A stretch of DNA of 64,000 nucleotides from Dictyostelium discoideum (GCA_000004695.1 CM000152.2:5632001-5696000), one strand, 5' to 3'; shown: positions 1,936 through 48,052, counted from the first letter of the stretch. Notes: generated by a model from the letters alone, not told the origin. Program-made: numbers and translations.

Positions 1936-4900
1936 ATAATTTGTTGGTTGACTAAAGAAAGGTTTTTTAATTAAAGGTGGTGAAGATGAACAAGATAATT
2001 GATTTGAAGGAGAAGAATTTGAAGAGGAAGAACCTTTAATGATAGGTAATACGACAGTGAATTGTGAACCTTTATTTTCACCTTCACTATTTGCATAGAC
2101 GGCACCTTTATGAAGGTGAATAATATTTTGAGTGATTGAAAGACCAATACCCAAACCACCATAGGATCTAGTTGAACTACAATCAGCTTGTTTAAAACGA
2201 TCGAAAACACTTGGAAGGAACTGTTTTGGTATGCCTTTACCATTGTCAGTGATAGTGAAAAGGATCCAACGATCACCATGACGATTGATTGTGTTAAACA
2301 TTGGATTGGAACAAAAACCCAATACTTCACGTGAAGGTATTTGATTTACAACCTTTAGATTTAAATGGATTCTACCTTTTTCTTTAGTGAATTTAATAGA
2401 GTTTGAAAGTAGATTCCAAATGACTTGTTGCAATCTTGCTTTATCACCAACGATGTTACGTAGAATTGAGGATTCTTCTTCACCTTCACCTTGAATATTG
2501 GAATGGACAGAGATCTTTTTAGATTGAGCTGTAACGAGTATTGAGGAGATTGCATTCTCAATTAAAATTGGTAAATCAACATCACCTAAAATTAAACTAA
2601 ACTTATCACCAATAATTAATGACATATCCAAAAGATCATTGATAAGTTGATTTTGAGAGCTTGCACAACGTTCAATAGTTTCTAAACCAGTTCTAACTGT
2701 TGAATCATCACCTGAAATTGAACCACTGCCACCACCACTACTACCACCACTATCAATATCATATAACAATAATTGACACCAACCTAAAATTCCATTTAAT
2801 GGAGTACGAAGTTCATGAGATAAATTCATAAAGAATTCATCTTTTGATTTATTTGTATTATTTAGTAGATTTCTTTCTTTTTCCAATTCACCAACCAAAG
2901 TTTGTAAATCTCTTTTCTTATTTGTTAATTGATTAATTAATTCTTGAAGATCTGTATTTGCAGAACTTAATTCTTCTTGTAGGAATTGTTTTGCTTTTTT
3001 CATAGTCATTAAATTAACTACACGTGCCACCAATTCTTCAGAGGAGAATGGTTTATTGACATAATCAGAGACACCATTTTGTAATAGTTTAATTCTTAAA
3101 TTTTCATCAGCTTTTGCAGTTAATAAAAGTATAGGAATATTATCAAATTGTTCATCGGATCTTAATTGTTCAACCATTTCATCACCACTCATACGTGGCA
3201 TCATACAATCGGTTACAATGAGATCGGGTGTTATTGCTCTTGTCTTTTCAATGCCCTCAACACCATCGAATGCTGTGACCACGAAATAATATTTACTTAA
3301 TAACTCTGCAATGAATCTATTCATCTCTGGATTATCTTCAACCACTAAAACTATTGGTTTATTATGTATATTTTCTTGTGATTGATAAAATTGTTTCTCT
3401 GTTAATTCCTCAACAGCTTGTTGAGCAATTGCATGAACTCCCATTATACTACCCATATTATCTTTTAATGCATTTGAAGCAATATCTGAAGATGTATTTG
3501 TTTTTTTTAAAATATTAAAATTTAAACCATCCTCATCATCGTCGTCGTCGTCGTCGTCATTATCGTCGTCGTTTATTTTATATTTATTATCGATATTATT
3601 TAAAATTAATTTTGGTTGTTGTAAATTTTGTTGTTGTTGTTGTTGTTGTTGTTGTTCTTGTTGTTGTTGTTGATATAATTGTTGTTGAATTTCAGAAATA
3701 TTTTGATCGGATATAGTTTTTTTATAAAGATGCTCATCCATATTTGGAGTGAGTGGTAGTCTGAGGGTGAATTGAGCACCACCAGTTGAAATGTTATGAA
3801 TGGTGACAGTGCCACCATGTAAAGTTACAAACTCCTTTACAATTGAAAGACCTAAACCAGTGCCACCATGCTTTCTAGTTGAAGAACCATCCACTTGTCT
3901 AAACCTTTCAAAGATGATCTCGTGTAAATTATCTGGTATACCAGGACCAGTATCAGACACCACGATTTGAAAGCCAGGTTTATTTGGTGACAAATCAAAT
4001 TTCTCTAAAATACACTTTACTGCACCACCTGATGGTGTGAATTTAAATGCATTGGAAATCAAATTTGTTATAACTCTTTGCATTTTATCTGCATCAATTG
4101 CTGCCATCATTGGTTCAGATGGTGTAATGATTGAGAAATCCAATGATTTCTCTCTTGCTAAAATCTCAAAACAACTTGCAATCAAATGAACGGTTTGACC
4201 TAAATTAACCATACTATAATTTAAATTCATTTTACCTGCTTCCAATCTACTTATATCTAATAAATTATTTACAATCTTTAATAATCCTCTTGCATTTCTT
4301 GCAACAATCTCTAAATCTTTTCTAACATTTATATCTACATTTTCATCTTTTAATAATTTATCTGTTGGTCCAACAATTAATGCTAATGGTGTTCTTAATT
4401 CATGTGAAACATTTGCACTAAAAAAAAAAAAAAAATTAGGTTATTATTATTTTTTTTTTTTTTTTTTTATTTTTTTATTTTTAAAAAATTACTTACAAAA
4501 ATTGAGTTTTTAATTCATCCAATTCTTTAATTTTTTCATATAAACTTCTTAATTCATTATTTTTTCTTTCGATTTCTAATTCACCTAATCTTTTTTCAGT
4601 GATATTTCTACCCTCGGGTAAGATGAGTGATACCTCACCTTTATCGTTAAATAATGGCATCAATGAGAAATCAATTGTAATCTTTTCGGTACCAGCTGAT
4701 TTACCAAAGATTTCAGTTTCATAACGTATAAATTCACCTTTTGATGCTTTATGAACTGCCTCTCTAACATTATCTATATTCTCTTGTGATGTTGCCCACC
4801 ATCTACAATCCCAAAATGGTATACCTTGAATACTTGAACGTATCATACCACCACCTTGTAATGCTGGTTCATTTACATCTAATAAATTACCATTAACATC

Positions 4901-5271
4901 TAATAATGCTACAAACTAAATAATTATTTAAAAAAAAATAATAAAAAAATAAAAATAAAAATAAAAAAATAAAAAATAAAAATAATTAATACAATATTAA
5001 AATTATTGATTAATTTATTAATTAAATAATATTTAAAACTTACTTGATACATTTCATCTAACATAATACGTGCATTTTTATTCGAATTTGAGACAGCTCT
5101 TAGATGATTAATTTCTTCAATAAGTTCTTCTCTAGTTTTTTCATGGTCAGGTTTTTGCTTTCTCATATAATGAATCTGTTGTTGTTGACTGGTTATACTA
5201 AATACTGCTCCTGTATCCCCATCAGCCTTTAAATAATTGGTTGAGGCCGTAGTTGTTGATATATCTTGCAT
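424..5271 (-). CDS. dhkD: Double hybrid histidine kinase (PAS/PAC, HisKA, HATPase, receiver, HisKA, HATPase, receiver). Three exons: 5271..5044, 4915..4497, 4417..424. Predicted 1546 aa.
   Basis: The 1273-aa ORF contains two HATPase_c cores (DTGPGIP...GGTGLGLSIVK and DNGKGIP...GGLGIGLSI) and two receiver domains (LVVEDNPEMN...DLIVTDCMMP and IMLVDDLEETT...DIILSDLTMP). A HisKA H-box lies immediately upstream (ANVSHELRTPLA and MNLSHELRTPLNGI). The upstream ORF 4493..4846 is PAS/PAC-like. Minus-strand GTAAGT donors are at 5043 and 4496, and AG acceptors at 4916 and 4418, with consistent phases. The spliced length of 1546 aa equals the length I recall for DhkD. The symbol is a recollection-based assignment, with about 0.5 confidence on the name. 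Confidence 0.85.
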
Positions 5272-6519
5272 TATTATTATTATTATACTTAATAATTATT
5301 ATTATTATAATAATTATAATTATTATTATTATTATTTATTATTTTTATTATTATTATTATTATTATTTATTATTGTTTTTTTTATATATATGTGAATTTA
5401 TGTGATAAAATAATGCAAATAAATAAATTTGTGGAGAGTGTGTTTGGTGTGTATTTATGCGTATGTGTGTTTTTGGTGTGTGTGTGAATGTGTTAGTGAG
5501 TGTGTATCAAATCATATATGTTTACATATAAAGTTTTTAATAAATAAATTAAAATAAAAATAAAAATAAAAAAAGAGAAAAGACACACTTATTTATGTTT
5601 CTAATATATTAATATGTAGTACATGTGTTATTTATTTATAATTATATTGTTTTGTTTTGTTTTTTTTTTTTTTTTTTTTTTGGTGTTTCGTTTATTTTTT
5701 TTTTTTTTTTTATTTTTTTTTTTTTTTTTTATTTTTTTATTTTCAAAATTTTTATTATTTTTAAATTTAGTTTAGTTTAGTTTATTATTAAATTATTTAA
5801 TTTGCTTATATATGTGTGCATTTTAACCAAAGGAAAAATAAAAAAAAATAGTTTTATTTTTTTATTTTTTTAATTAATTAATTCAAAAAAAAAGTTTTTT
5901 TAATTAAATTTTTTTTTTTTTTTTTTTTAAATTTTTTTTTTTAATTTTTTTTTTTTTTTTTTATTTTTTTATTTTTGTACCTCTTTTTTTATTATTGTTA
6001 TTATTATTTTTTTTTTTTTTCATAAAAAAATTAAAAATAATATTTAAACAGTTAGCAGTTAGAGTGAAAGACTTTTTTAGAAAAAATAAAAAATAAAAAA
6101 AAAATACCAAACTTATTATGAAATAAAATTTAAAATAAATAAATAAATTACATAAACCAAATTTAAAAAAAAAAATAAAAAATAAAAAAATTTAATTAAA
6201 AAAAGAGTTCATTGTTGGTGAGAGTGTATTTATTGGGCTACTTTGTTTCTTTTAAATCGAGATAAATCCCGAGATTCAATCTTTTTTATTTTTTTTTTGG
6301 AATTTTTTTTTTTTTTTGGAATTTTGTTTTGTTTAATTTTATTTTATTTTTATTTTTATTTTTTTTTTTGGGGGATTTAATTAATCTATAATCAAATTAC
6401 AAATGGTGTTATGTGAAAATGATTTGTTTTTTATTTTTTTTTTAATTAATTTATTATTATATTAATTAAAAAATTGACCAATGAAAAGTTGAATTAAATT
6501 TAGTTTAATCAAAAAAAAA

Positions 6520-6563
<44 letters not shown>

Positions 6564-7989
6564 ACTTTATATATAATGATAATTTTTTATTTTTATATAA
6601 ATATATATATATATTATTTTCCAAATTATTGAAAATTGAATTGATTGTTTAGTTTGGAGGCCACCTATTAAATTAACCCTATTAAAGGTATAAAAATAAA
6701 AAAACAATTGAAAATTAGTTTTCCACCATAATTGGTACATCTAATTAATAAATAATAAAATAAAAATTTCAGTATTTTAGAAACTTTTTTTTTTATTTAT
6801 TTATTTATTTATTTGTTTTAATAATATTCCTCAATTTTCAAAAGTATTAATTGGAATATTTTTTAATTCCAACATATCTAATATTTAAAATGAAAACCAA
6901 CAAAAATATTTTTTTTTTTAAATAACATCATAAAAAAACCTAATTCTATATAAGATATAATTCTATATATATATATAATTTATTTATAAATATTTAATAA
7001 ATAGATAATTTATTTCTTTTTTTTTTCATTTTTTTTTTTTTTTTTTTTCATTTTTTTTTTTTTTTTTTTTAAATAACACCATAATATTATTTTGATTAAA
7101 ATATATTTTTTTTTTTTTTTTTTGAAGTCTATTTTTATTTTTATATAAAATTATTTAATTATTCTATTTTTAAATACACACCACACATTCACACCACCAT
7201 AATTTTTTTTTATTTTTTTTTTTTCTATTTTTATTTTTTTTTTTTTTTTATTTTTTTTTTTTTCGAATGGAAAGTGTAAAAAAAAATTAATTTTAATAAA
7301 AATAATAATACAAAAAAGTGAAACTACCCCAATAATTCTTAAAATAATCTGTTGAAAAGGAAATTTTGTACACATAGAGACTAATTGTTTATTTATCCTT
7401 TCTAATCGATTGTTTTTTTTTTTTTTTTTTAAAATTTCACATTAAAAAAAAAATAAAAAATAAAAATTAAAAAAATTAAAAAAAGGAAAAGGGGTAGTCA
7501 CGCTGTTTCGTTTGATGTTAACTTAACTAACTTTTTTTTTTTTATTTTTTATTTTTTATTATTTTTTTTTTAATTAAAATTTTAATTTAATTTAATTTTT
7601 TTTTTTTTTTTTATAATTTTTTAATTTCTCTATAAAAAGATTTAAATTTTTTAATTTTTTATTTTTTCAAATTCATTTTTATTATACAAATATTAAATTG
7701 TATGTATTCAAATAAATTAACATATTTTTTAAAATCTATATTGAAATAAATTATTTGTTTTAATTACTATTTTTTTATAAAAAAAAATATTTAATTTTTT
7801 TTTTTTTTTTTTTAAAATTAATTACTAATATAAATATTTTTTTATTTTTTTTTATTCTTTTTTAATTTTTTATTCATTTTAATATTCTATAGCATATTTT
7901 ATTTTTTTATATATTGTAACATTTCATAAAAAAAAAAAAAAAAAAAAAAATTAAAAAATCAACTTATTTGAAAAAAAAAAAAATAATAA

Positions 7990-9144
<1,155 letters not shown>

Positions 9145-9698
9145 AATTACCCACACACAAAATTTATCTTATGTGACCTATTCCAAAAAAAAAAAAAAAA
9201 AAATATATTTTCAATAACAAAATAAAAATCTTTTTTTCAAATAGTTAAAAAAAAAAATCAATTTGTTTATTAATTTTAAATTTATTATTATTTTGTTTTT
9301 TTTTTTTTTTTCCCCAAGTTAATCCTTTAGTTAATTTATTTTTTATTTTGTTTTTTTTTTTTTTTTTTTTTTTCCTCAAGGTTTAATTATTTTCAAAAAC
9401 ATATGAATTTTCGGTTAATATCTGCAAATTTTCGAATCAGTTTATTTGAAAAAAAGTTAAAAAAAAAATTATTTTATTTTTTTTTTTTTTGAATTTAATA
9501 TTTTTTTTTTTTTTTTTTTTTTTATAAAAAAAAAACTCACAAACACCATCATTGTACCATAAAAAAAAAAAATAAAAAAAAAAAAAATAAAAAAAGAGAT
9601 AAAAATATCAATAGAATTCTAAAGAATTATTTAAATATTTATTTATACCTGTAATTTTAATTGTATTATAAAAACTTTTAAAAAAAAAAAAAAAAAAA

Positions 9699-12600
9699 AT
9701 GTTTTTTAAAGGTAAAAAAAAAGATAAAGAAAAGGAAAAATCACATGGTAATATTGGAAATGTAATATCAGTTGAAAATAAAACAGGTAGTCAATCAAAT
9801 TTACATGTTGAACAAAATTTATCAAATGAAGATTTAAAAATTCAATTCTCACAATTACTCTATGAATTGGGTGTACCAGAAGCAAAAAGAGTTGAAATGG
9901 AGTTATGGTCAAATGATAAGAAATGGATGTTATTAGTTCAAAATAAAGATAAAATCAAAGAGAATGAAGAAAAGATGAAACAAAAAGGTTCACTCTATGA
10001 AACACCACAATTTTATCTTTCATTATTACGTGAAAATGCTTCAATTCAAAAAACAATCTCTGATCTTAAAGTATCGTTGGCTTCAAATAAATTATCTTGG
10101 ATTGATTCTTTCATTGGTTTATCAGGTTTTGATGAAATTTTAAAAATTTTTCAAACTTTTCAATTAAAACCAGAGTAAGTTTTTAATTTAAATTAAAAAA
10201 AAAAAAAAATAGTATAAATTATTAATTAATTTTTATTTTTTTTAAATTTTTTAAAAAAATAATAAATAGAAAAAATTCAATTGATTTTTTAATTTTATTT
10301 GATTGTGTTAATATTATAAAATCAATATTAAATAGTCAAAGTGGTGTTAAATCAGTGATGACAACATCACATACATTTAAAGTATTGGTATTATGTTTAG
10401 ATCAAAGTTATCCACCAGAATTAAGAAATGCAGTATTACAATTGACAGCAGCATTAACATTGTTACCAACGGTTGGACATAGTTATGTATTGGAGGCAAT
10501 TGAAAATTTCAAAGTTTCAAATCGTGAGAAAGTACGTTTCCAAACCATTATTGAGGGTGCAAAATCAGTATCAAACACTCAACTTCATTATGAATATTTA
10601 ACAAGTTTTATGAATTTAGTAAACTCTATCGTAAATTCACCAGCAGATTTACAAGTTCGTATTGGTTTACGTTCAGAATTTACCGCTTTGAAATTGATTG
10701 AATTAATATCAAACTCAAAGGGTGTCTCTGAAGATTTAGACACTCAAATCAATCTATTCTTTGAATGTATGGAAGAGGATAACGATGAAGTTGGTGCACA
10801 TTACAAAGAGGTTAACATTAGATCACCAAGTGAAGTTAGCACTAAAATAGATACCCTATTACAAAGTCATCCAGCACTTCATCATCATTTCATTTCAATC
10901 ATTAAAGGATTATATACTTTAGCTTCAACTCAATCTGATTTAGGTGGTTCAATGTGGAATATTTTAGATGAATCTGTTGGTTTAATCTTAAAAGATCCTT
11001 CAAAAGAATCTCAACTTGAAAAATTACAAAATGAAAATAATAATTTAAAATTACAATTATCTGAAATAAAATTAAATAATAGTAATAATAATAATAATAA
11101 TAATAATAGTAATAATAATAATAATGATAGTAATGTTTCAACTCCAAATATTAATACTGGTTCACCTTTACTTCCACCACAACAATATCAAGATCTTGAA
11201 CAAAAATTACAATTAACTCAAAATGAAAAAAATGAATCACAAAATAAAGTTAAACAGTTGGAATCAGAGATTAAAGGTTTAAATTCAACTCTTACAGGTT
11301 TACAATTAAAAGTTACAAAATTAGAAGCAGATTTATTAAGTGTTAGTGTTACAACACCACCTTCAGATACTAATGGTACTACATCACCACCAATCGAAGC
11401 ACCATCATCACCATCATTGGGTGCCCCACCACCACCACCACCACCACCACCTGCTCCACCAGTTTCAGGAGGAGGTCCACCACCACCTCCACCTCCACCA
11501 CCACCATCATCAGGAGGAGGTCCACCACCACCACCTCCACCACCATCATCAGGAGGTCCACCACCACCACCTCCACCTCCAGGTGGAATGAAAAAACCAG
11601 GTGCACCAGCTGTACCAAATTTACCACCAAAAAAATCATCAGTACCATCTGTTAAAATGGTTGGTCTTCAATGGAAAAAAGTTAATAATAATGTAATTGA
11701 AAATTCAATTTGGATGAATGTTAAAGATTATAATTTGAATGATCAATTTAAACAACTTGAAGAATTATTCCAAGTTAAAAAACCAACTGCAACTACTCCA
11801 ACTGCTCCAGTAGGTGGTGCAAGTAATGTAGCAGTTGGTGGTGGTAGTGGTTCAAAATCAATAGTATCAACACCAACTATCAGTATTTTAGATCCAAAAA
11901 GATCACAAGCAATTATGATTATGTTATCAAGATTTAAGATTTCATTTCCAGATTTAAGTAAAGCAATAACAAATTTAGATGAAAGTAAATTAAATTTAGA
12001 GGATGCAAAATCTTTATTGAAATTTGTACCAAGTTCAGAGGAAATTGAATTATTAAAAGAAGAGGATCCATCATGTTTTGGTAAACCAGAACAATTCCTT
12101 TGGGAACTTAGTAAAATCAATAGAATCTCTGAGAAATTGGAATGTTTTATCTTTAAACAAAAACTTTCAACTCAAATCGAAGAATTAACACCAGATATTA
12201 ACGCATTATTAAAAGGTTCAATGGAAACCAAAAATAATAAATCATTCCATCAAATTCTAGAGATTGTATTATCATTGGGTAATTTCATTAATGGTGGTAC
12301 ACCACGTGGTGATATTTACGGTTTCAAATTGGATTCTCTTAGTGGTCTATTGGATTGTCGTTCACCTTCAGATTCAAAAGTAACCTTAATGACTTGGTTA
12401 ATTCAATTCTTGGAGAATAAACATCCATCTCTTTTGGAATTCCATCAAGAGTTTACTGCAATCGATGAGGCAAAGAGAGTATCAATTCAAAATTTACGTT
12501 CAGAAGTTGCTTCATTAAAGAAAGGTTTAACATTGCTAACTAATGAAGTTGAAAAGAGTGAAGGTGCTTCAAAGACAATTTTAAGTGGTTTCGTTGGTAA

Positions 12601-13469: not shown

Positions 13470-13910
13470 CAAATAACTCATTTGTACATTCAATGATATT
13501 TATAAAATTAATAGAACAACACGCTTAAAAAAAAACAAAAAAAACAATGTGTGTGTGGTGGTTATATTTAACCCCCCTCCCACTTAAAAAGACAAGAGAA
13601 ACTTTCTATTATGTACGACATACTTATTGACAACACAAATATTTCCATCGATTGAATTATATTAAACAAACTCTTCAAACACTCGCTAACGAAGTAATGT
13701 TAAACCCATACACAAAACAATGTTTTTTTTTAATTTATTTTTTTATTTTTTCTTAAAAAAATAGAAAAAAAAAAAATAAAAAAAAAGAGTATAAATAAAT
13801 TTTTTTTTTTTTTTTTTTTTTTCATTACCCTTAAAAAATAACAATTAACTTCTTAAACAAATCAAATAATAATTTATTACTTTTAAAAATAAAAAAAAAC
13901 TATCTAAAAA

Positions 13911-20899: not shown

Positions 20900-20918
20900 A
20901 ATAAATTTTCATAAAAAT

Positions 20919-20991
20919 GCCCGGCTAGCTCAGTCGGTAGAGCGCCAGACTCTTAATCTGGTGGTCGGGGGTTCGAGCCCCCCGTTGGGCG
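20919..20991 (+). tRNA. tRNA-Lys (anticodon CUU).
   Basis: GCCCGGCTAGCTCAGTCGGTAGAGCGCCAGACTCTTAATCTGGTGGTCGGGGGTTCGAGCCCCCCGTTGGGCG folds as a canonical cloverleaf. It has a 7-bp acceptor stem, a GCTC/GAGC D-stem, a CCAGA/TCTGG anticodon stem with loop CTCTTAA, and a GGGGG/CCCCC T-stem with loop TTCGAGC. A B-box-like GGTTCAATTC lies about 43 bp downstream, possibly an ex-B box. Confidence 0.9.
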
Positions 20992-21683
20992 AATTTTTTA
21001 TTTTAAAATTTAATAGTACACTGGTTCAATTCTTAACTTGGTCCCACCAATGGTTTAAGAGGATTGTGTAATTATTTACCTATTCAAAAAAAATAATAGG
21101 TCACACGAAAGAATTACCAAAAAGAACAATACAAAAAACAAAATCACACCTATAATACCTTCCAACATGAAAAAAGATCATGAAGTAAACATAAACTACA
21201 TTCATTCAAAATTTCATTAACAACATTTTGAATGTTCTATAAAGAAATAGACTATGACCTTTCTAGACATTTTGTATATATAATAGCATTGATTTTACAC
21301 CAAATTTAGATATGGGTTTGGAATAATATACAGCGATGACAAAATTCAGTTAGACTACAACACTATTCTCAAAAAATGTTAAAACATTAGACTATATAAA
21401 AAAAAAAAAAACTTTAAAATATCATCATCAAAAGATTCAATGTCAATCTGAAACAAAAATGAATACCTAAAACAAATTAAAAATATCTAAAATCAAATAA
21501 TCAAAGAATACTGTACCAATGATAGCGTACCAAATAGAGTAATTGTGGAATAAAAAAAATAAATCAAATTATAACAATATAACTAATTGTTGTTATTCAA
21601 AAAAAATTAAAATAATTAAAATAAAATAAAAAAACATTTATTATTGCAGAAGGTTTTAATACTAGCAAATAATTAATTAATAT

Positions 21684-22003: not shown

Positions 22004-22076
22004 CACCCATTGTGGGTCTCGATCCCACGACCTGCAGCTTAGAAGGCTGCCGCAATTCCAACTTTGCTAAACGGGC
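22004..22076 (-). tRNA. tRNA-Arg (anticodon UCU).
   Basis: The minus strand reads GCCCGTTTAGCAAAGTTGGAATTGCGGCAGCCTTCTAAGCTGCAGGTCGTGGGATCGAGACCCACAATGGGTG. The anticodon stem is GCAGC/GCTGC with loop CTTCTAA, and the T-arm is GTGGG-ATCGAGA-CCCAC. The acceptor stem has two G-U pairs. An ex-B-like GGTTCGATGTC lies about 35 bp downstream. ORF 21918..22115 overlapping it is spurious. Confidence 0.8.
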
Positions 22077-39298: not shown

Positions 39299-40332
39299 AA
39301 ATTGAATTACTTTTTTTTATTATATTTCAAAAAGTGGTCAATATCTATATTTGAATCTATACTTCAATAAATTAATATATTTATTATTTAAATAAAACAG
39401 TTTTAAAACCTCTTTTCCCAAACTATTGGTGGTTTTAAAAAAAAAAAAAAAAAAAAAATTAATTTTTTTTTTAATTTTATTTTCCCACTAAGACTTTTTT
39501 TTGAAAATAATAAATAATTAATAATTTGAGAGATAAAAATCTATTGATATAAGGGAATTATAGATTTTGATATAGGGTTTTATTTTTTTTTATTTTTTTT
39601 TTTTTTTTTTATTTTTTTTTTTTATATAAAATTAAATTATATATTTTTTAATATTAATGGTTTAGAATATCAAACCTATTTTAAGAGGCAAAGTAATTAT
39701 GAAATATATAATTTCATAATTACTCATCATGATATTTGCCAAACTCTTCCCAAATTTAATGTGATGGCAATATTGATCATAATAAATAAAGGAACATACA
39801 ATTAAAAAAAAAACATTAGTTTAATATTTTTTTAAACCAAATTGATAATCATAGTTTATCAACATTAAAGCAAGTAAACTATAATTAATAGTTTTATATA
39901 TGAATTTTAATGTATACAAACACACGAATGTTGCAAATCTTGAATCAAAATATATAAAACTAAAAAATTATTATTATAATTGTTGTTTGGTTATTTCTTT
40001 ATTTCTAAACATATACTCAATTAATAACTAATAAATTGTAGAAATAAAAGAAAATTGTTGTAGGGAATTTTCAATAAAATTTCACTACAGTAGCGTAGTG
40101 AATTTTATTATTTAATTTCACTACAGTAGCGTAGTGAAAAAAAAAAATCACTGACCCTAAATTTTTTTTTTTTCAAAAAACAAATAAAGTTTATTAAATT
40201 ATTATCTTTTATTTGATTATTAGTTCTATATAAGTTTTTTTATTTTTTTTTTTTTTTATTTTATTTTTTTTTTTTTTTATTTTATTTTTTTTTTTTTTTT
40301 TGCGCCAAAACTTTTTTTTTTTTTCCCCAACA

Positions 40333-40367
<35 letters not shown>

Positions 40368-40586
40368 TTTCATTTTCCCAAAATGAAACAAGATAAAATA
40401 AATGAAATTATAAATTATTTAAAATTTATTGAAGATAATAATTTTGAAAATACTAAACATAAAAATTATAAATTTTTACATGATGAGTAAATATTTTTCC
40501 TTACAATAACACAATCATTTTTTAAATTCTGACCAATAAAAAACAGAAACAGAAAAGAAAAATTATTTAGAATTGAAAAAAAAGTC

Positions 40587-42703
40587 ATGAATTGTGGCGG
40601 AGATAGAAATATATCAAAAGAAGTGTGTTTAGAAGTAATTAATGATTATAGAATGGTATCACTCTGGGAAGAAATGCATAAAGGTCATATAGGAAGAGAT
40701 GCAACCTATGGGAACTACAAGACTAAATATTATAATATGGGATTGTATTCTTTTGTATCTGATGCAGTAGATACGTGTGACATTTGCCAACGAAATAGAA
40801 TAAAAGGTTTGGTATCAATCATTTTTATATGATGTTTTGTAACTTTTATATTAAAACTCTTTTAATAATTTAAATAAATTAATAGGTATAACAAAGGATT
40901 TTGCTCCAATTGTAGATACCGAGGAATACTCAAGATTGGTTTATGATTTAACATCAATTAAAGGTGAACATAAAGAAAAAGTTACATACGATGATGATAA
41001 TGAAAAGATACTAACTAAACTAGATGATCTTATCCAATATGACTCTGTACAACCGTACGACACCGATGTTGTTTACATTATTCTATGCATAGATTCTTTT
41101 ACAAAATTTGCTACTGGAAGGTATTTATTTTTTATTTATTAATTTATTAGTTTTCTTTTTTTATTTTAATTATCATTTATTTTTTAGATGTTTGACAACA
41201 AAGAGAACAGTTCCCATATACAATTTTTTGGCTCTCACGTACTTTGGCAAACCTGTGAAAGTATGGCACTGCGATAATGGACGTGAATTTAAAAACAAAG
41301 TCCAAAAAGAATTCCTAAAACTTTTTCCAGGCTCCAAGTCAGCACATGGAGCTCCTCGTACACCAACAACTCAAGGTATGGTAGAAAGATTGAATCGAAC
41401 TATCAAGGAGAGGATCTCAAAATTAAAACAACAAGAGTATGATATTGTGAACAATATAAATTATCGATATGTTTATTAATTAATCATTTATAAATAAATT
41501 TTAGTTTTCTTGATGGTACTTCTAGGTCTCTTTCTGAACTATTAAAACAAGCTTTGTATGATTACAATAATACAAAAACAAGAACAATTAAAATGACACC
41601 ATCTCAAGCTGTTGGTATTGTTCCTTTGTTTATTAATGTTCAATCAGAACAAGACTCTCAATCAATTGGTGTTTCAGATGTTTCAAAAGAAGAAAGAACA
41701 GCTATTATTCTTGAAAATCTCACAAGTTACCAAAATCAATGGAATTCAAAACCACCAAAGGGATTGAAAGTTGGTGATACTGTACTCTTTCTAGAAATTA
41801 AAAAAAATAATGTAAGTAATTAAAACATAAAGATTAATAATATATGAAACAGTAATAATTAACAAATTTTATATTTAATTCTAATAGAAAATATTGATTT
41901 TGTGTAAAATTCATAAGGTAATACAGGAAGACACTAAACAACTTTATAAACTTGAATTTTTGGAAGATGGAATCAATAGCCTTCAAAAAAAAGGTTTATA
42001 CTCTGGTTTTGTAGGAGGTAACAAGTTGGTTCTTTATAAACAATCAACAGTTGATATTTTTAGAACATCGCCAAACATACAAAAAGATATTGATTCTTTT
42101 ACTTCTGGTCTTTATTTAAATAATGATGGGAAAGTTATTGAATTTCTGGTTCAGTTTATTAAAAATCTTGGTAAGGATTTATCCAATTTCAACTTGCATC
42201 AATTGGTAACACAAAATGATCCATTTAGGGTTTTGGAAGATGCTCTTAACAATCCATCAAATATTCCACCTATCATTAACGATAATCCATTTCAACACAA
42301 ACTCAATAATGAAATGGAACAAGAAGAAATACTCCCATTTTTAAATAATAATCCAACAGCGCCAAATTTAATGAATTGTTTGAGAAAGGATATGAATTTA
42401 AAAGAAATAGTACCACCAATACCTCAAGTGCAAATAATACCATCGTATACTATACCACAATCTGGTAGTGGTATAGTAACAACTGTTAAACGTCTCAGAG
42501 GCCGTCCTCATAAGATACCAATTGTTAATAAACCTCCTTTAAAATCACATTCTAAACCATCCAAATCACCTCTCAAATCACCATCCATTTCACCTTCCAA
42601 TTCACCATTTAAATCACCATTTAAATCACCTTCCAAATCACCATTTAAATCACCTCACAGCAAAGAAAAATGCACCTTTAAAGCAAATTTAAAGAAAAGT
42701 TGA
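40587..42703 (+). CDS. Integrase (HHCC zinc finger, DDE core, C-terminal domain, AT-hook/SPKK tail) of the transposon. At least 5 exons: about 40587..40804, 40873..41127, 41188..41444, 41505..41813, 41888..42703.
   Basis: The HHCC region reads EEMHKGHIGRDATY...CDICQRN. The DDE residues are in CIDSFTKF, CDNGREF and HGAPRTPTTQGMVERLNRTIKE, the last matching the signature integrase H.....P.TQG..ER.N. The post-DDE motif is LYDYNNTKTRTIKMTPSQAV. The C-terminal tail has an AT-hook (KRLRGRPHK) and repeated (S/K)PxKSP units. Donors are GTATTT, GTATGA and GTAAGT, paired with T-rich ...AG acceptors. Confidence 0.75.
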
Positions 42704-43900
42704 TTTAAATTGGATTTAAATTGAATTTAAAGCCGCGTTTAAAAAATTCATTTTTAAGGTAATTTTTAAGGTAATTTTTAAGATATTTAAAAATGCCTTT
42801 AAAATTTGCTTTAAAATAAATTTTTAAGCAATTTTAAAGGTGATTTTAAAGGTGATTTTAAAGGTGATTTTTAAGGTAATTTTTAAGATAATTTTTAAGA
42901 TATTTAAAAATACCTTTAAAATTTATTTTAAATTAATTTTAAATAGGATTTAAAGTAGATTAAAAGTAGATTTAAAGTGAATTTAAATTTCCTTTAAACA
43001 TAAATTTAAGGTTTTTAATAAAAAAGATCTAATTTTAGCACAAAAAAATGGGGATAAAATATTCTATCATTTTTAAATTTTTCATCAAAGCAATCAAATG
43101 GTGTAATGGTTGATGAGACTACCCTTTGATAGAGGGTCGGGGGATCGAATCCCTTTTGGGTAATTTTTGAAAAATTAAAAAAAAATTTTAAAAAATTTAT
43201 CCGTTAAATAACGGATTCGAACTCAGGACCTCGCTTTTAAAGCCATTAAAAAGGTAATTTTAAAGGTAATTTTAAAGGTAATTTTTAAGGTGATTTTAAA
43301 GTAACCTTAAAAATTACCTTTAAAATTACCTTTAAAATTACCTTTTTAATGGCTTTAAAAGCGAGGTCCTGAGTTCGAATCCGTTATTTAACGGATAAAT
43401 TTTTTAAAATTTTTTTTTTAATTTTTCAAAAATTACCAAAAGGGATTCGATCCCCCGACCCTCTATCAAAGGGTAGTCTCTTCAACCATTACACCATTTG
43501 ATTGCTTTGATGAAAAATTAAAAATGATTGATTTTTTTTTCCCCATTTTTTTGTTCTAAAATTAGATCTTTTTTATTAAAAACCTTAAATTTATGTTTAA
43601 AGGAAATTTAAATTCACTTTAAATCTACTTTAAATCTACTTTAAATCCTATTTAAAATTAATTTAAAATAAATTTTAAAGGTATTTTTAAATATCTTAAA
43701 AATTATCTTAAAAATTACCTTAAAAATCACCTTTAAAATCACCTTTAAAATCACCTTTAAAATTGCTTAAAAATTTATTTTAAAGCAAATTTTAAAGGCA
43801 TTTTTAAATATCTTAAAAATTACCTTAAAAATTACCTTAAAAATGAATTTTTTAAACGCGGCTTTAAATTCAATTTAAATCCAATTTAAATCCTTAAGCA
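42690..43900. repeat. Near-perfect palindrome (inverted repeat) of about 1.2 kb, centred near 43290, inside the transposon. It contains tandem 12-mers (AAAGGTAATTTT / AAAGGTGATTTT) and tRNA-like A-box/B-box modules.
   Basis: 42700..43290 is the reverse complement of 43290..43880 over hundreds of bases. Examples are TTGATTTAAATTGGATTTAAATTGAATTTAAAGCCGCGTTTAAAAAATTC versus its complement at 43830..43890, and CAAATGGTGTAATGGTTGATGAGACTACCCTTTGATAGAGGGTCGGGGGATCGAATCCCTTTTGGG versus its complement at 43440..43500. The centre is (GGTAATTTTAAA)n running into (TTAAAATTACC)n. Confidence 0.85.
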
Positions 43901-44933
43901 ATTAATTATTAAGCGATTAAGGTGTTTTCTTTGCTGTGTTCCAAATCACCATCCATTCACTTCCAATCACCATTAAATCCCTTCCAATTCACCTTTTAAA
44001 TCACCATTTAAATCACCTTCCAAATCACCATCAATAGGAAAAATCGTTAATGTGATCCTTCAAAAAAAGTTGCAAAAACAAAGTTAACAAGGACACAAAA
44101 ATTAGAACTTGATTTGGTTGCAATTAATAGAAGGGGGTATGGGGAAATTAGAAAATAAAAACAAGTGGCCAAATCAAAAAAACAAAAAAAACACAAATCA
44201 ACACAAAAAATTAAAAAAAAAAAAAAAAATTAAAAATTAAAAAAAAAAAAAAATTGAAAAAAATAAAAAAAAATTACATTTGTTAAAAAAAATAAAAAAA
44301 AATAAAAAAAAATAAAACTTAAAAAAAATTGAAAAAACAAAATAAAAAAAAAAAATTGAAAAAACAAAATAAAAAAAAATTTCAAAAAAAAAGAATGATC
44401 GAAGAATTAATAGATTCGATAAAACTCTTAAGAAATTTAGCCATTGAATATGGCAATGAAGAATAGTTAGATTCAGAGGAAAATTTGACTAAATTCCTCG
44501 AAAAAGCAGCCAAAGTACTATATGTAAATAGTGGTGATGCTTTAATCGTTAAAAATCCAAATATGATGTTAGAAGCATTAGAATTAAAATCAAAACAATT
44601 TCACCAACATTGTGTAAAAACTGTAATAGAAAACGAATTATATTTGGACTTTTTTGTATACAAAGGAAAATGCAAAAACATCAAATGCACCAGAGGTAAC
44701 AAAGCTAGAAAAAATTCAATTGTGTGCAGTGTTTACAGTGATATGGTAAATCAAGCAATTGAACAACTCAGGGAGTTAATAAAAATAAATTAATAAAAAT
44801 AAATTAAAAAAAAAAAAATTGAAAAAAAAAAAAAATTAACAATAATAATAAATAAAATAATAATTAAAACAAAAATAAAAATTACAATTTAATAAACAAA
44901 TAAAAATTGAAAAAAATTTAAAAAAAAAAATTG

Positions 44934-44973
<40 letters not shown>

Positions 44974-45311
44974 AACAATAATTATAATAAAAATAAATAA
45001 AATAATAATTAAAACAAAAAATAAAATTTCAATTTAATAAACTTTATTTGTTTTTTGAAAAAAAAAAAAATTTAAGGTCAGTGATTTTTTTTTTTCACTA
45101 CGCTACTGTAGTGAAATTAAATAATAAAATTCACTACGCTACTGTAGTGAAATTTTATGGAAAATTCCCTACAACAAAATAGTTAAGAACAATTAAAATA
45201 ATGATTTTTTTTAGTCTTGATTCAGCACATTGGTATTTTAATAGGTTTCTTTAAAAACGGAAAATAAAATTAAAAAAAAAATAAAAAAAAAATTAAGTGT
45301 GTTCCAGAAAG

Positions 45312-45614: not shown

Positions 45615-45651
<37 letters not shown>

Positions 45652-47950
45652 TATAATGGAATTGGGTTTGGAGTGTTCGGGTTATGCCATGATGTGTTGA
45701 AGTTGATTATTAATTGGTCTCTGTTATTTAATTTGTATATTGTTTCATTCCTTTCGATCTTCTTTATTAAAATGAATTTCTCTATTTTAATTAAGTTGGT
45801 TAGTTCTTTTTCAATTAATGTTGGATCAAATGAGGGTGGAGATTTAGATTCGTCTTGATTGAATAGTTTGTGACAAATTATTCTCCATAGTTGATGTATA
45901 ATTATGCCGATTAAATTTGGGTAGATTCTTTCTTTTTTATTTGTTTTGCTAATATCTAGTGAATTGAGATCCCAATTTCTGATCTTGAAGAATGAGAGAT
46001 TGTTGAATGTTGAAATTATTATGTTTTCTATTTCTTTTACTTGCATACAGTCTATAAAAAGGTGAGTGTATGGGTCACGGATTATATTGTTACAGATTTT
46101 GCATGGTACGTTACGTTCATAGTTGATTCCAGGAAGTGACCTTGAGAAAAATCTGAATAGTGTATTTCTACCTTTTTGATGTGATATGTGGTTGATATGT
46201 TGGAAGATGGATGGTATGTTGATGTTATTTATTGAAATTAGATTTTTTTGTCCATCTGTTTTTCTTATTGATTTGTATTTGTGAGTGATTAACATGTTAT
46301 AGATTTCTTTAAGTTGAAGTGGCTTTTTGTTTTGACCTTTGATACAATCAGGTAGTGATTTTAGTTTATTGTGTTGTGGTGCAAAGTTGTTTCTAAAATC
46401 TTTCCATCTGTCTACCATCTCTCTTAATCCAATTGATATATATTTGCTGTTGCTGATTTGTTCCATATACCATTCTTGTAGTATGTTGCATGCTTTTATC
46501 TTGATAATGTGTAATAATCTATTCATGTTCCAAACTTTGAATGCTATTTGTCTGATACCTAAGTCCCACATCTTAATTCCACCTTCTTTCCAATCACCGT
46601 ATGCTCTATCCATTGTCATTAATGTTCTATATTTATGTTCTTCTGTGTATGTATTTTTAATTGCGGAGAAGAGGAACCATTTAATGATATTGTTTAGTTC
46701 AGTAATGTGTGATTCATTTAGTGAGTCTAGATATTGATGGTAGGATAATCTCGATAGCGCATATGTTTTGACAATTGTCATCTTTGCTCTTATTGTAGTT
46801 GCTTGACTTTTCCAATTGTTTAAGCTATCTTTGATTGAGTTGATGATTGATGTGATTTTTGAATTGAGGCCCACTTTCGTGAAATTGAGACCCAAGTATC
46901 TTTCTGGAGCTTCACTAATCTTAAATGGGAGGTTTGGTGGTATATTACCAATGCATATCATAACAGTTTTCTCTTGATTAAGTTTTGAAGATGTACCTAG
47001 ACAGTAGTTGTTGATTTTATCCAATACTAATTTTAATTCTTCTGCTGAGTTGTTGAAAGTTGACATATCATCTGCGAATGCTGTTAGCTTGATTCTTTTC
47101 TGGTCTGATAATTTAAATCCTTTAATTTCGTTTTCTTTAAGTATATCAATTAGTAGTGCTTCCATTACAAGTGCAAATATTGTTGGTGATAATGGATCTC
47201 CTTGTTTTGTGCCTCTGTTAACTGTAATGTGTCCCACCAGGAAGTCATTTATCTTGATCTTATTCGTTGTTTCTTTTAATAGATTCATTATTAATTCTAC
47301 TATCGTTTTTGGTATGCCAATGTGGCTCAATGTTCTTCTGATACTTTTGTGGCTAATTGAGTCGAAAGCTTTGTTGAAATCGAAGAATGTGATTAACGTA
47401 GTACTGTTTCTTGATTTGTTTGCTCTTTCGATTACCTCCTTCATTATTTGAATATTATCTTGGATGTAACGATTTGGAACAAACCCATTTTGAAATTTGT
47501 TTATTATTTTCTTTGTAACTGCAAGTAAACGGTTGTTGATGATCTTACTTAATAGTTTGTAGTCCGTATTGAGTAGAGTAATTGGTCTTCTATTAGCTAT
47601 TTGTAGTTCATCTCCTTTCTTGAATAGTGTTGTGATAAATCCTTCTTTGAATTTTGGATTGATTTCTTTTTGATTAGTTAATGTATCATTAAATACTTTT
47701 GCTAAGATTGTTGAAAGTGATGCAGAGTGGTTTCTATATAATGCAGCATTGATTCCATCTAGTCCTGGAGATTTGTGTGGATTAGAATTTTTAATTGCAT
47801 TATTGACTTCTTTTGGTGTGATTGCACTATCTAATGATAGTCTGGAAATGTATTGTTTGTCCACTATCCATTTATCCAATAGTTCCCTATTTTTTGATTA
47901 TTGATTTAGTTAAACTGAACATATAAACAATGTAATGCATCAAAACACAA
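45613..47950 (-). mobile_element. 5'-truncated non-LTR (LINE, TRE/L1-like) retrotransposon copy. It has an RT domain, a C-terminal Cys/His motif and a 3' poly(A).
   Basis: The 742-aa ORF has no ATG; it opens right after a stop and uses TTG in the track. It begins within the RT fingers: FDFNKAFDSISH, QGDPLSPTIF, FADDMSTF. It ends with CKICNNIIRDPYTHLFIDC. About 35 T on the plus strand (45613..45648) abut the stop, which is poly(A) on the element strand. There is no endonuclease or ORF1. The 5' end lies less than 80 bp downstream of tRNA-Ser and in the same orientation. Confidence 0.75.
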
Positions 47951-47956
47951 AAGATT

Positions 47957-48052
47957 CGACGCCTGCAGGATTTGAACCTGCGCCCCCGAAGGGATTGAAT
48001 TACTCTTTTATATGATTCGAGTCCAACTCATTAACCACTCTGACAAAGCGTC
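47957..48052 (-). tRNA. tRNA-Ser (anticodon CGA), class II, with a long variable arm and an intron of about 15 nt after position 37.
   Basis: The minus strand reads GACGCTTTGTCAGAGTGGTTAATGAGTTGGACTCGAA[tcatataaaagagta]ATTCAATCCCTTCGGGGGCGCAGGTTCAAATCCTGCAGGCGTC-G. The acceptor stem is GACGCTT/AGGCGTC. The anticodon stem is TTGGA/TTCAA with loop C-U-C-G-A-A. The variable-arm hairpin is CCC-TTCG-GGG. The T-arm is GCAGG-TTCAAAT-CCTGC. Confidence 0.8.

Follow-up and report, generated by a model that had tools for sequence, protein, structure and literature searches.

A probable young copy of Tdd-4 in Dictyostelium discoideum, with a foreign foldback element nested in its integrase gene

Tdd-4 has been placed in the Ginger2/Tdd group by Bao, Kapitonov & Jurka 2010 (PMC2836005). 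The published sizes are 3,839 bp for TDD-4 and 3,783 bp for TDD-5; Ginger2 elements have termini which follow a TGTNR rule and their transposases are defined by the lack of GPY/F and YPYY motifs (PMC2836005). A different set of Dictyostelium-specific DNA transposon families, DDT/thug, has transposases reported as resembling nothing known; Tdd-4 and DDT are separate families (PMC5633606). [quoted passage not shown]

The window which we have analysed is a stretch of 64,000 nucleotides of D. discoideum (GCA_000004695.1 CM000152.2:5632001-5696000); all positions are counted from its first letter. We are highly confident that positions 40056–45176 are a young, recently inserted copy of the cut-and-paste transposon Tdd-4, whose gene has been broken by an unrelated, nested foldback element. 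An earlier note on this DNA had described a DNA transposon of the Tdd-4 lineage, enclosed by TIRs and with an intron-split HHCC and DDE integrase of retroviral type. This core reading is borne out by the inverted repeats, the in-frame exons and the Pfam matches. The locus is ordinary, because a second small transposon has landed inside the integrase gene of a young copy of the known Tdd-4: it is a routine case of nested transposons. Its features are the following:

40051–40055, no strand: left flank, TSD copy AAAAT (flank comparison)
40056–40200, plus strand: left terminal inverted repeat (TIR) of Tdd-4, core of about 145 bp, starts TGTTG (end-to-end alignment, repeat search)
40080–40138, plus strand: two TTTCACTACAGTAGCGTAGTGAA subrepeats, 40080–40102 and 40116–40138 (exact motif matches)
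40383–40486, plus strand: exon 1, ATG at 40383 (in-frame GTAAAT..TTTAG intron to exon 2)
40571–40806, plus strand: exon 2, HHCC zinc-binding domain, HKGH...CDIC (Pfam Integrase_H2C2)
40886–41120, plus strand: exon 3, first catalytic Asp, CIDSFTKF (splice model, Pfam rve, alignment with PFV integrase 3oyi)
41188–41436, plus strand: exon 4, second Asp (HCDNGREF) and catalytic Glu (GMVERLN) (Pfam rve/rve_3, alignments with RSV 1c0m and PFV)
41505–41811, plus strand: exon 5 (in-frame GT..AG junctions)
41888–42655, plus strand: exon 6 before the insertion, AT-hook (RGRP) and first 8 SPXX repeats (100% identical to L001 8057–8797)
42656–43938, plus strand: nested 1,283-bp non-autonomous foldback transposon, CACAGCAAAGAAAA...TTTTCTTTGCTGTG (empty site in L001)
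42702–43892, no strand: palindromic core of about 1.19 kb, centre at 43297/43298 (repeat search, arm alignment)
43939–44136, plus strand: displaced remainder of exon 6, more SPXX repeats and basic tail PSKKVAKTKLTRTQKLELDLVAINRRG (three-frame translation, C-termini of P0001–P0003)
44137–44393, plus strand: predicted intron 6, GT at 44137 and AG at 44392–44393 (follows from the AX4 gene model DDB_G0292352)
44394–44793, plus strand: exon 7 or downstream ORF region, MIEELID...GNEE (identical in L001 10021–10416)
45031–45176, minus strand: right TIR of Tdd-4, ends CCCTACAACA, subrepeats 45094–45116 and 45130–45152 (alignment)
45177–45181, no strand: right flank, TSD copy AAATA (flank comparison)

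Outside the TIRs of Tdd-4 the window also has a reverse transcriptase ORF of non-LTR type (45651–47879, minus strand), which adjoins a tRNA gene.

The element is assigned by its size and its protein. Once the nested insert is removed it has a length of 3,838–3,840 bp, to be compared with the 3,839 bp of published TDD-4. The proteins closest to its transposase are from D. discoideum (95–97% identity); that of AX4 DDB_G0292352 is 97% identical. The assignment to Tdd-4 (reference copy AAFI02000006.1:352615-356458) rather than Tdd-5 is based on this length and on the protein identity. An independent genomic copy (L001) is 100% identical to the window over 1,431 and 741 bp of exonic and intronic sequence. 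Wells reportedly described Tdd-4 in 1999 as having 145-bp TIRs, six introns, five of them GT-AG, and 15 SPXX repeats within an alternatively spliced region; the copy in the window is consistent with these features. It resembles Tdd-4 in its size without insert, its TG...CA/TGTNR ends and its TIRs, which have a core of about 145 bp and reach about 250 bp if less identical sequence is included. Further resemblances are the intron-split HHCC and DDE transposase, which ends in an SPXX tail and has neither GPY/F nor YPYY, and the 5-bp TSDs of the sister copies. It differs by the 1,283-bp foldback in exon 6, by indels in the tail and by an imperfect TSD. The earlier note had assigned it to a Tdd-4/DDT lineage: Tdd-4 is right, but DDT is a separate family (PMC5633606), to which the host element with its integrase does not belong.

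The terminal inverted repeats of Tdd-4 are real and far above chance. A repeat search gives arms of 244 nt with 81% identity, 40055–40298 and 44934–45177. In direct alignment the two terminal blocks, 40056–40200 and 45031–45176, match as inverted repeats over a core of about 145 bp with 2 mismatches and one indel; beyond it the similarity decays into T/A-rich low complexity sequence, with a weaker match up to about 40298 on the left. The earlier note had placed TIRs of about 120 bp at 40055..40170 and 45060..45177: they are present, although their arms are slightly longer and their ends lie one base inward. Comparison with other genomic copies, a check which it had proposed, sets the true ends at 40056 and 45176 (TGTTGTAGGG...CCCTACAACA, TG...CA), and the same ends are recovered in copies L001–L003. 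The start TGTTG agrees with the TGTNR rule. When the ends are set at TGTTG...CAACA, the other copies have perfect TSDs of 5 bp: TCATC in L001, ATATA and CCTTT in L003. The window copy is flanked by AAAAT on the left and AAATA on the right, with only AAAT in common: its TSD is imperfect, one A short within a homopolymer run. The self-complementary 23-mer TTTCACTACAGTAGCGTAGTGAA has four exact matches in the window, where none is expected; all of them are in the TIRs, two per arm, and L001 has the same four subrepeats. They are presumed to be transposase-binding sites.

The gene between the TIRs was claimed to be a multi-exon integrase gene, which holds: six exons can be joined in a single frame through five GT..AG introns of 67–84 bp (predicted splicing), and all the quoted motifs are found (HKGH/CDIC, CIDSFTKF, CDNGREF, HGAPRTPTTQGMVERLNRTIKE and RGRP). 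The GC content is 7–20% in the introns, 30–38% in exons 2–6 and 12% in exon 1. The junction peptides of the splice model are identical in the independent gene models P0001–P0003, and P0002 and P0005, the latter a family member with 44% identity, share the conserved N-terminus MKQxKINEIxNYL encoded by exon 1. The predicted product of the window gene has 648 aa, with HHCC, DDE, AT-hook and 8 SPXX repeats. Pfam Integrase_H2C2 scores 32.5 bits, above its cutoff of 25.5; rve (26.9 bits, curated cutoff 32.6) and rve_3 (22.9 bits) remain under their cutoffs. The best sequence matches in the PDB are the integrases of RSV (1c0m) and PFV (3oyi), with E about 4e-6 and with D, D and E in register. The HHCC and DDE integrase fold is common to gypsy integrases, Ginger1 and Maverick/Polinton. 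The gypsy-like C-terminal region which had been claimed is not supported: a regex scan of the 648-aa product finds no GPY/F or YPYY motif, in which it differs from gypsy and Ginger1, and a Pfam search C-terminal of the integrase core gives no domain. Ginger2 lacks both motifs (PMC2836005). Maverick/Polinton elements measure 15–20 kb and have genes for a protein-primed DNA polymerase B, packaging ATPase, protease and capsid; the window element has 5.1 kb (3.8 kb in canonical form), and no domains apart from the integrase ones can be recognised in it.

Exon 6 is the site of the interruption. Its open reading in the window (41888–42703) enters the nested element for 15 codons and stops at TGA 42701–42703, as a consequence of the insertion. 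Of about 16 SPXX repeats the truncated product retains 8; the other 8 or so are missing from it, as are the basic tail and what the downstream exon encodes. The displaced part of exon 6 also has small indels when compared with L001, at 43958–43979 and as a 1-bp deletion at 44057. The copy was thought to be largely intact; with a foreign transposon of 1,283 bp cutting its ORF short and with indels in its displaced tail, it is not. Further downstream, intron 6 is based on the gene model P0003, which joins ...AINRRG to MIEELIDS.... The region of exon 7 has an in-frame TAG at 44464–44466, followed by an ORF of 102 aa (44485–44793). The whole region 44394–44793 has no Pfam match and no tblastn match in a Tdd-5-like copy. 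The earlier note had pointed out both this ORF and an internal palindrome, and both are present. It suspected that they might be unlike described copies: this is right for the palindrome, because it is an insertion, but not for the ORF (44395–44793), which is canonical Tdd-4, since it is identical in an independent copy, in-frame TAG included.

The nested element interrupts exon 6 where the SPXX repeats are encoded and has ends CACAG...CTGTG. The empty site is available in L001: position 2601 of the Tdd-4 element is joined straight to position 3885, exactly where the window has the block of 1,283 bp. The flanks of the insertion duplicate 1 bp only. The SPXX-coding repeats on both sides of the palindrome look duplicated (repeat family D5), but they are the tandem SPXX array of the host gene. 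Most of the element is a palindrome with arms of about 596 bp each, about 98% identical, which consist in part of 11–12-bp tandem repeats (TTTAAAGGTGAT-like). There are no ORFs of 40 aa or more within it. Each arm has two B-box-like motifs (43142, 43213, 43372 and 43443, with 1 mismatch each), and tRNA prediction on the palindrome calls no tRNA. Its RNA is predicted to form one hairpin, about 620 bp long, with -860 kcal/mol. The non-coding arms built of 11–12-bp tandem repeats recall Foldback/Galileo of Drosophila, a resemblance of structure only.

Near-identical relatives of the nested element, MITE copies of 758 bp, are present at some ten further sites, both within Tdd elements and elsewhere. 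This form is asymmetric; the full palindromic form has been found once, in the window. Perfect 2-bp TSDs are present in all 11 of the other copies examined, which are 10 full-length non-autonomous elements and one coding relative of 5,034 bp, complete in L005. Their sequences are TA (three cases), AA and TT (two each), GA, GC, AT and TG; at this base composition a match of 2 bp is expected by chance in about 0.1 per copy. The window element and all its relatives have CACAG...CTGTG ends. The relatives of about 5 kb encode a protein of 814 aa, with motifs CHTC and HLLLH. These Dictyostelium proteins have no direct Pfam match; hhalign with CACTA/tnp2-type transposases gives 99.2% and E 1.2e-19, in a comparison for which the A5 set had already been selected with the A4 profile. 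Four of the ten remote homologs tested carry PF02992 (Transposase_21) above cutoff. The protein thus appears to be a diverged DDE transposase of CACTA/tnp2 type. The nested element shares a 29-bp terminus with the ORF-bearing element; their subterminal 12-mer repeats are similar and their TSDs have the same length, which suggests that the MITE is mobilised by this CACTA-like transposase. It is an internally deleted, non-coding derivative from a family unrelated to Tdd-4.

The family has the CAC...GTG termini and 2-bp TSDs of CACTA/En-Spm, Mirage and Chapaev (CMC/CMCT) elements and their MITEs, with the 1-bp duplication of the window copy as an exception. It differs from them by its very diverged proteins and by the almost perfect 1.2-kb palindrome of the nested copy. 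The nested element may be a DDT element, and so may the relatives of 5 kb (DDT-S and DDT-A/B, respectively; cf. Glockner et al. 2001). D3, a published small RNA linked to thug-S, has no match in the nested element.

Other explanations of the locus have to be weighed. The palindrome might be native to a longer and so far undescribed variant of Tdd-4, for instance as a regulatory hairpin or an internal origin: it lies inside the element, its borders duplicate only 1 bp in the window and the SPXX-coding repeats on either side look duplicated. But L001, otherwise 100% identical, is uninterrupted at that site, the block has its own inverted termini as well as the 758-bp relatives with 2-bp TSDs elsewhere, and the duplicated look of the flanks is due merely to the SPXX array. 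This reading is already largely refuted and we consider it extremely unlikely. Near-perfect long palindromes are also a known failure of assembly, and the full form is present in a single copy, while all the others have the asymmetric 758-bp form. The real locus might then have a 758-bp element, or none, and the 1.2-kb palindrome would be a foldback chimera of long reads. However, the arms differ in about 2% of their positions, indels included; the palindrome passes into two distinct transposon ends, one of left and one of right type, instead of host sequence, and the right end is a sequence variant absent from the left arm. A chimeric read would also mirror the flanking Tdd-4 sequence, so that an artefact seems very unlikely.

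As for the host element, it might belong to Tdd-5 or to a new Tdd family: its assignment is based on length and protein identity, and Tdd-5 (TDD-5, AF298206) has the same architecture, a nearly identical terminal 15 bp and a close size (3,839 vs 3,783 bp). Nevertheless the insert-free length is that of TDD-4 and mismatches the 3,783 bp expected for TDD-5, the 97% identity with the AX4 protein points to Tdd-4, and a separate second family does exist (P0004/P0005), with 43–44% protein identity to the window transposase. Its size fits TDD-5: the copy recovered in L003 (5200–13000, TSD CCTTT) has about 3.77 kb after nested elements are removed. It is therefore highly improbable that the window element belongs to Tdd-5 or to a new Tdd family. 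That it is what remains of an LTR retrotransposon, or a domesticated integrase gene, is hardly credible. The integrase domains are indeed of LTR-retroelement type and a reverse transcriptase ORF is found 475 bp away, but that ORF is of non-LTR type, on the opposite strand and outside the TIRs. Gypsy-like elements such as Skipper and DGLT-A differ from the window element, in which the terminal repeats are inverted, not direct, and no reverse transcriptase, RNase H or protease is found between them (ORF list and Pfam). The presence of multiple near-identical copies with TSDs indicates that the TIR-bounded unit moves.

We return to a Tdd-4 copy with a nested foldback. The protein of a canonical Tdd-4, of about 3.84 kb, has an HHCC zinc module, a DDE core with RNase H fold and a DNA-binding C-terminal tail formed by the AT-hook and the tandem SPXX repeats. 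By analogy with integrases, this transposase would bind the repeated 23-bp motifs in both TIRs, cut the TG/CA ends and integrate across a 5-bp stagger. In the window copy the non-autonomous foldback of 1,283 bp, from an unrelated family, is inserted in the SPXX part of exon 6 and breaks the gene. The composite may still be mobile in trans through the transposase of other copies, because both TIRs of Tdd-4 are intact. The nested element might in turn be excised by the transposase of its own family, since both its ends are present.

A more speculative proposal, which we consider unlikely, is that the nested foldback is the full-length form of a poorly described MITE family (possibly DDT, with a CACTA/tnp2-type transposase), that this family has recently undergone a burst and that the locus triggers RNAi. 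The copies of the MITE family are 97–100% identical. If the proposal is true, a very recent burst of the MITE would have taken place in at least one wild strain of D. discoideum. Transcribed together with the Tdd-4 gene, this copy would give an RNA with a perfect hairpin, about 620 bp in length, and the locus would naturally set off RNAi, both against the MITE family and, in cis, against the transcripts of Tdd-4.

The transposon at 40056–45176 belongs, as judged from its sequence, to Tdd-4, a family of the Ginger2/Tdd group which has already been described. It lies in DNA of about 20% G+C, which is typical for Dictyostelium. A repeat search of the window finds inverted arms at 40055–40298 and 44934–45177. 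Alignment of both ends gives terminal inverted repeats (TIRs) with a core of about 145 bp (40056–40200 and 45031–45176), which has two mismatches and one indel; past this core the similarity decays to T/A runs. This near-perfect core confirms that the terminal blocks are inverted repeats, as an earlier note had claimed. The self-complementary 23-mer TTTCACTACAGTAGCGTAGTGAA occurs twice in each arm without a mismatch: there are four in the window, whereas none is expected from shuffles. The comparison with other copies which had been proposed to fix the termini was informative: their flanks place the ends at TGTTGTAGGG...CCCTACAACA. These ends conform to the TGTNR rule, a criterion of Ginger2 (PMC2836005). 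Sister copies have perfect 5-bp target site duplications (TSDs), TCATC in the genomic locus L001, ATATA and CCTTT in the locus L003. In the window copy the left flank is AAAAT and the right flank AAATA, its TSD being off by one A.

The TIRs enclose a gene with six predicted exons in one shared frame, separated by five canonical GT..AG introns of 67–84 bp. The introns have 7–20% GC and exons 2–6 30–38%, with only 12% in exon 1.

40383–40486: exon 1
40571–40806: exon 2
40886–41120: exon 3
41188–41436: exon 4
41505–41811: exon 5
41888–42703: exon 6, as read through into a nested insert
43939–44136: displaced tail of exon 6 after the insert, with small indels, one of them a 1-bp deletion at 44057

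The predicted product has 648 amino acids and contains every motif quoted for the multi-exon integrase gene in the earlier note: HKGH...CDIC, CIDSFTKF, CDNGREF, GMVERLN and RGRP. In Pfam the transposase matches Integrase_H2C2 above the curated cutoff, while rve and rve_3 fall just under theirs. Of the solved structures, the integrase cores of RSV and PFV match the transposase best (E about 4e-6), and the D, D and E residues line up in these alignments. A gypsy-like C-terminal region had also been claimed, but a motif scan of the 648-aa protein finds neither GPY/F nor YPYY. Ginger2 transposases likewise lack both motifs (PMC2836005).

All of the nearest proteins in the database belong to D. discoideum: P0001 and P0003 (DDB_G0292352, AX4) have 95–97% identity and P0002 87%. 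A second protein family, with 43–44% identity to the window transposase, corresponds to a Tdd-5-like element, whose copy in L003 (5200–13000) has about 3.77 kb without its nested elements. L001 is the genomic locus of P0001 in assembly GCA_054883475.1; it has the same TIR motifs as the window element and is 100% identical to its gene region across 1,431 bp and 741 bp. There, element positions 2601 and 3885 are directly adjacent, so that 42656–43938 (1,283 bp) is an insertion in the window copy. Without it the window element measures 3,838–3,840 bp, as compared with published lengths of 3,839 bp for TDD-4 and 3,783 bp for TDD-5 (Bao, Kapitonov and Jurka, PMC2836005). The core of the earlier reading, a TIR-bounded Tdd-4 transposon with an intron-split integrase, is upheld by the TIRs, the predicted spliced frame and the protein identity; its joining of Tdd-4 and DDT in a single lineage is not, since DDT is a different one. 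In 1999 Wells is said to have described Tdd-4 with 145-bp TIRs, TG...CA ends and six introns, of which introns 1–5 are GT-AG, and reportedly with an alternatively spliced region that holds 15 SPXX repeats. This description fits the window element. The locus leaves the understanding of integrase-type DNA transposons unchanged.

The insert interrupts exon 6 within its tandem SPXX repeats. From there the host ORF runs on for 15 codons of the insert (HSKEKCTFKANLKKS) to a stop at 42701–42703, so that the copy is not intact, although it had been thought largely so. Canonical proteins continue with about eight more SPXX repeats and then a basic tail (...IVNVIPSKKVAKTKLTRTQKLELDLVAINRRG...), and the AX4 gene model runs on into a further exon (MIEELID...GNEE). 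Since the sequence upstream of the insert is identical to L001, the copy is young and the nested insertion is its main lesion. An extra ORF had been taken as a possible departure from described copies, but ORF 44395–44793 is identical in L001 and is therefore canonical Tdd-4 sequence. The identity includes an in-frame TAG (44464–44466), which is thus no private mutation; it parts MIEELID...GNEE from the following 102-aa ORF in the same frame, and the AX4 model stops there. The ORF has no Pfam match, and a counterpart of it was not detected in the Tdd-5-like copy. With both TIRs intact, the element might still be mobilised in trans. An isoform skipping the SPXX region, if alternative splicing occurs there as Wells reportedly described, would skip the insert too.

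The surroundings of this Tdd-4 are rich in transposons, and several tRNA genes are found in the window:

45651–47879, minus strand: 742-aa ORF with RVT_1 (E 5e-37), its stop 475 bp right of Tdd-4
47957–48052, minus strand: tRNA gene of 96 bp (Rfam, 46.5 bits), missed by ARAGORN
20918–20992, plus strand: tRNA Lys(CUU)
22004–22076, minus strand: tRNA Arg(UCU), about 1 kb from the Lys(CUU) gene

The RVT_1 ORF starts 78 bp downstream of the tRNA gene at 47957–48052, which suggests a tRNA-gene-targeted non-LTR retroelement in a TRE3-like position. From its length, this tRNA gene probably contains an intron.

The nested element has the termini CACAGCAAAGAAAA...TTTTCTTTGCTGTG and 1 bp duplicated at its flanks. 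Its core is a palindrome (42702–43892) with arms about 98% identical, partly made of 11–12-bp tandem repeats. There is no ORF of at least 40 aa within the insert. Its RNA is predicted to form a single hairpin of about 620 bp (−860 kcal/mol), and because of this hairpin the palindrome gives weak Rfam miRNA matches (mir-548 and others), far under the gathering score. A related form of 758 bp matches roughly the initial 685 bp of the window insert at about 99% identity and then has a short right end of its own. In the window form the full left arm is repeated inverted, and left-type and right-type ends are distinct. The earlier note had considered the palindrome as part of the element's own structure; it is a transposon from another, CACTA-like family, nested in Tdd-4, and its site is empty in L001. 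Such a palindrome could also be an artefact of assembly, but this is disfavoured: the two arms differ from each other by about 2%, the insert is bordered by exact transposon ends, of which the right one is a separate sequence variant, and the adjoining Tdd-4 sequence is not mirrored.

The palindrome also has motifs like the tRNA B-box, two per arm, each with one mismatch to the consensus GGTTCGAATCC:

43142–43152, 43213–43223, 43372–43382, 43443–43453: B-box-like motifs

One of them is preceded by the A-box-like TGGTGTAATGG. No tRNA is called in the palindrome by ARAGORN or by Rfam, at the gathering threshold and at E up to 10; these are B-box-like 11-mers with no tRNA fold, and we reject a tRNA content.

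The shorter, asymmetric form (758–760 bp) is a MITE. L001 has four copies, three within its Tdd-4 at other positions and one outside; L003 has four, and the locus L004 two full and two partial copies. The full copies are:

L001: 5108–5867, 7299–8056, 9108–9867, 10978–11736
L003: 5609–6368, 7068–7826, 11677–12435, 14285–15043
L004: 3043–3801, 3841–4599

MITE copies are 97–100% identical to one another. The ten full ones were found at three loci, all in the D. discoideum assembly GCA_054883475.1, a sampling biased to transposon clusters. Loci L002 and L005, which are from another strain, lack the MITE, and in the 64-kb window there is the palindromic copy only (n=1). This distribution suggests that the MITE expanded in a burst which is very recent and possibly strain-specific. 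All ten copies have a perfect 2-bp TSD, as does a 5,034-bp coding relative in L005 (TA three times, AA and TT twice, GA, GC, AT and TG once each); the chance of a 2-bp flank match is about 0.1 per copy at the local base composition. Copies in different strains are nearly 100% identical and the TSDs are perfect, which indicates very recent activity of both Tdd-4 and the CACAG-ended MITE family.

Some arrangements of these copies are peculiar. In L004 (3043–4599) two MITEs stand head to head, 39 bp apart. Both have a TT TSD of their own, and together they make up a palindrome of 1.56 kb (97%), which is another route to a long palindrome than that of the window. L003 (5200–13000) is a four-level transposon nest: the Tdd-5-like element (TSD CCTTT) sits inside a CACAG-ended coding element and holds three MITEs and an internally deleted Tdd-4 (9300–11042, TSD ATATA). 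In the P0001 gene a MITE insertion comes with a 30-bp deletion which removes the intron-5 acceptor. At least this one public gene model of a sister copy (L001 6001–9022) translates part of the MITE as protein (DLAFKAIKKVILKVILKVIFKVILNEF...); this segment is an annotation artefact.

The Tdd-4 integrase is rejected as the mover of the nested element, since the termini (CACAG versus TGTTG) and TSDs (2 versus 5 bp) differ. A 29-bp terminus identical to that of the nested element, with similar subterminal 12-mers, leads to a 560-aa ORF in L003. The L005 relative (4218–9251, ends CACAGCAATGAAAA/TTTTCATTGCTGTG, TSD TG) has genes for proteins of 814 and 275 aa; it is apparently complete and would be an autonomous relative. 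The 814-aa family is multicopy, unnamed and, in a word-indexed search, found only in Dictyostelium. Pfam has no match for the nested element's partner proteins, and AlphaFold models the partner transposase too poorly (pLDDT 35.6, pTM 0.22) for a fold comparison. Distant relatives, with E values from 3e-8 to 1e-3, came out of an exhaustive profile search, and four of the ten tested have Transposase_21 (tnp2, CACTA family) above the Pfam cutoff. In a profile–profile comparison the 814-aa family matches Transposase_21/tnp2-bearing proteins with 99.2% probability (E 1.2e-19, 479 columns), and the first D, second D, C(2)C, MH..LG and H(3)H...E motifs are aligned. The CMC/CMCT clade has these motifs, CAC..GTG or CA..TG termini and TSDs of 2–5 bp (PMC12730594; PMC4079192); the nested family likewise ends in CACAG...CTGTG and its TSD of 2 bp lies within this range. 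On these sequence features the best reading places the nested element in a diverged CACTA-like family, of which it would be a non-autonomous member with a foldback shape. It may be the DDT of Dictyostelium workers, with DDT-S as the short form.

In the literature on thug, DDT and MITE we found no sequence-level descriptions. Published small RNAs (PMC4894637, Table 2), one of them thug-S-linked, do not map to the nested element, a weak negative which slightly disfavours its identity with thug-S. The linked one is apparently miRNA_can_D3, which maps elsewhere in L001: D3-3p/-5p match 3985–4064 and 13649–13794, in several tandem copies with 1–2 mismatches, adjoining RVT_1 genes and outside Tdd-4 and the MITE.

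In annotations the proper label for the locus is Tdd-4 with a non-autonomous element nested in it; to call it a host integrase gene or an intact autonomous transposon would be wrong. The transposases of Dictyostelium DNA transposons have been said to resemble nothing known (PMC5633606). The proposed affinity of the 814-aa family is at odds with this statement: a transposase family described as an orphan would be tied, as Repbase may already record, to the CACTA/tnp2-type DDE transposases.
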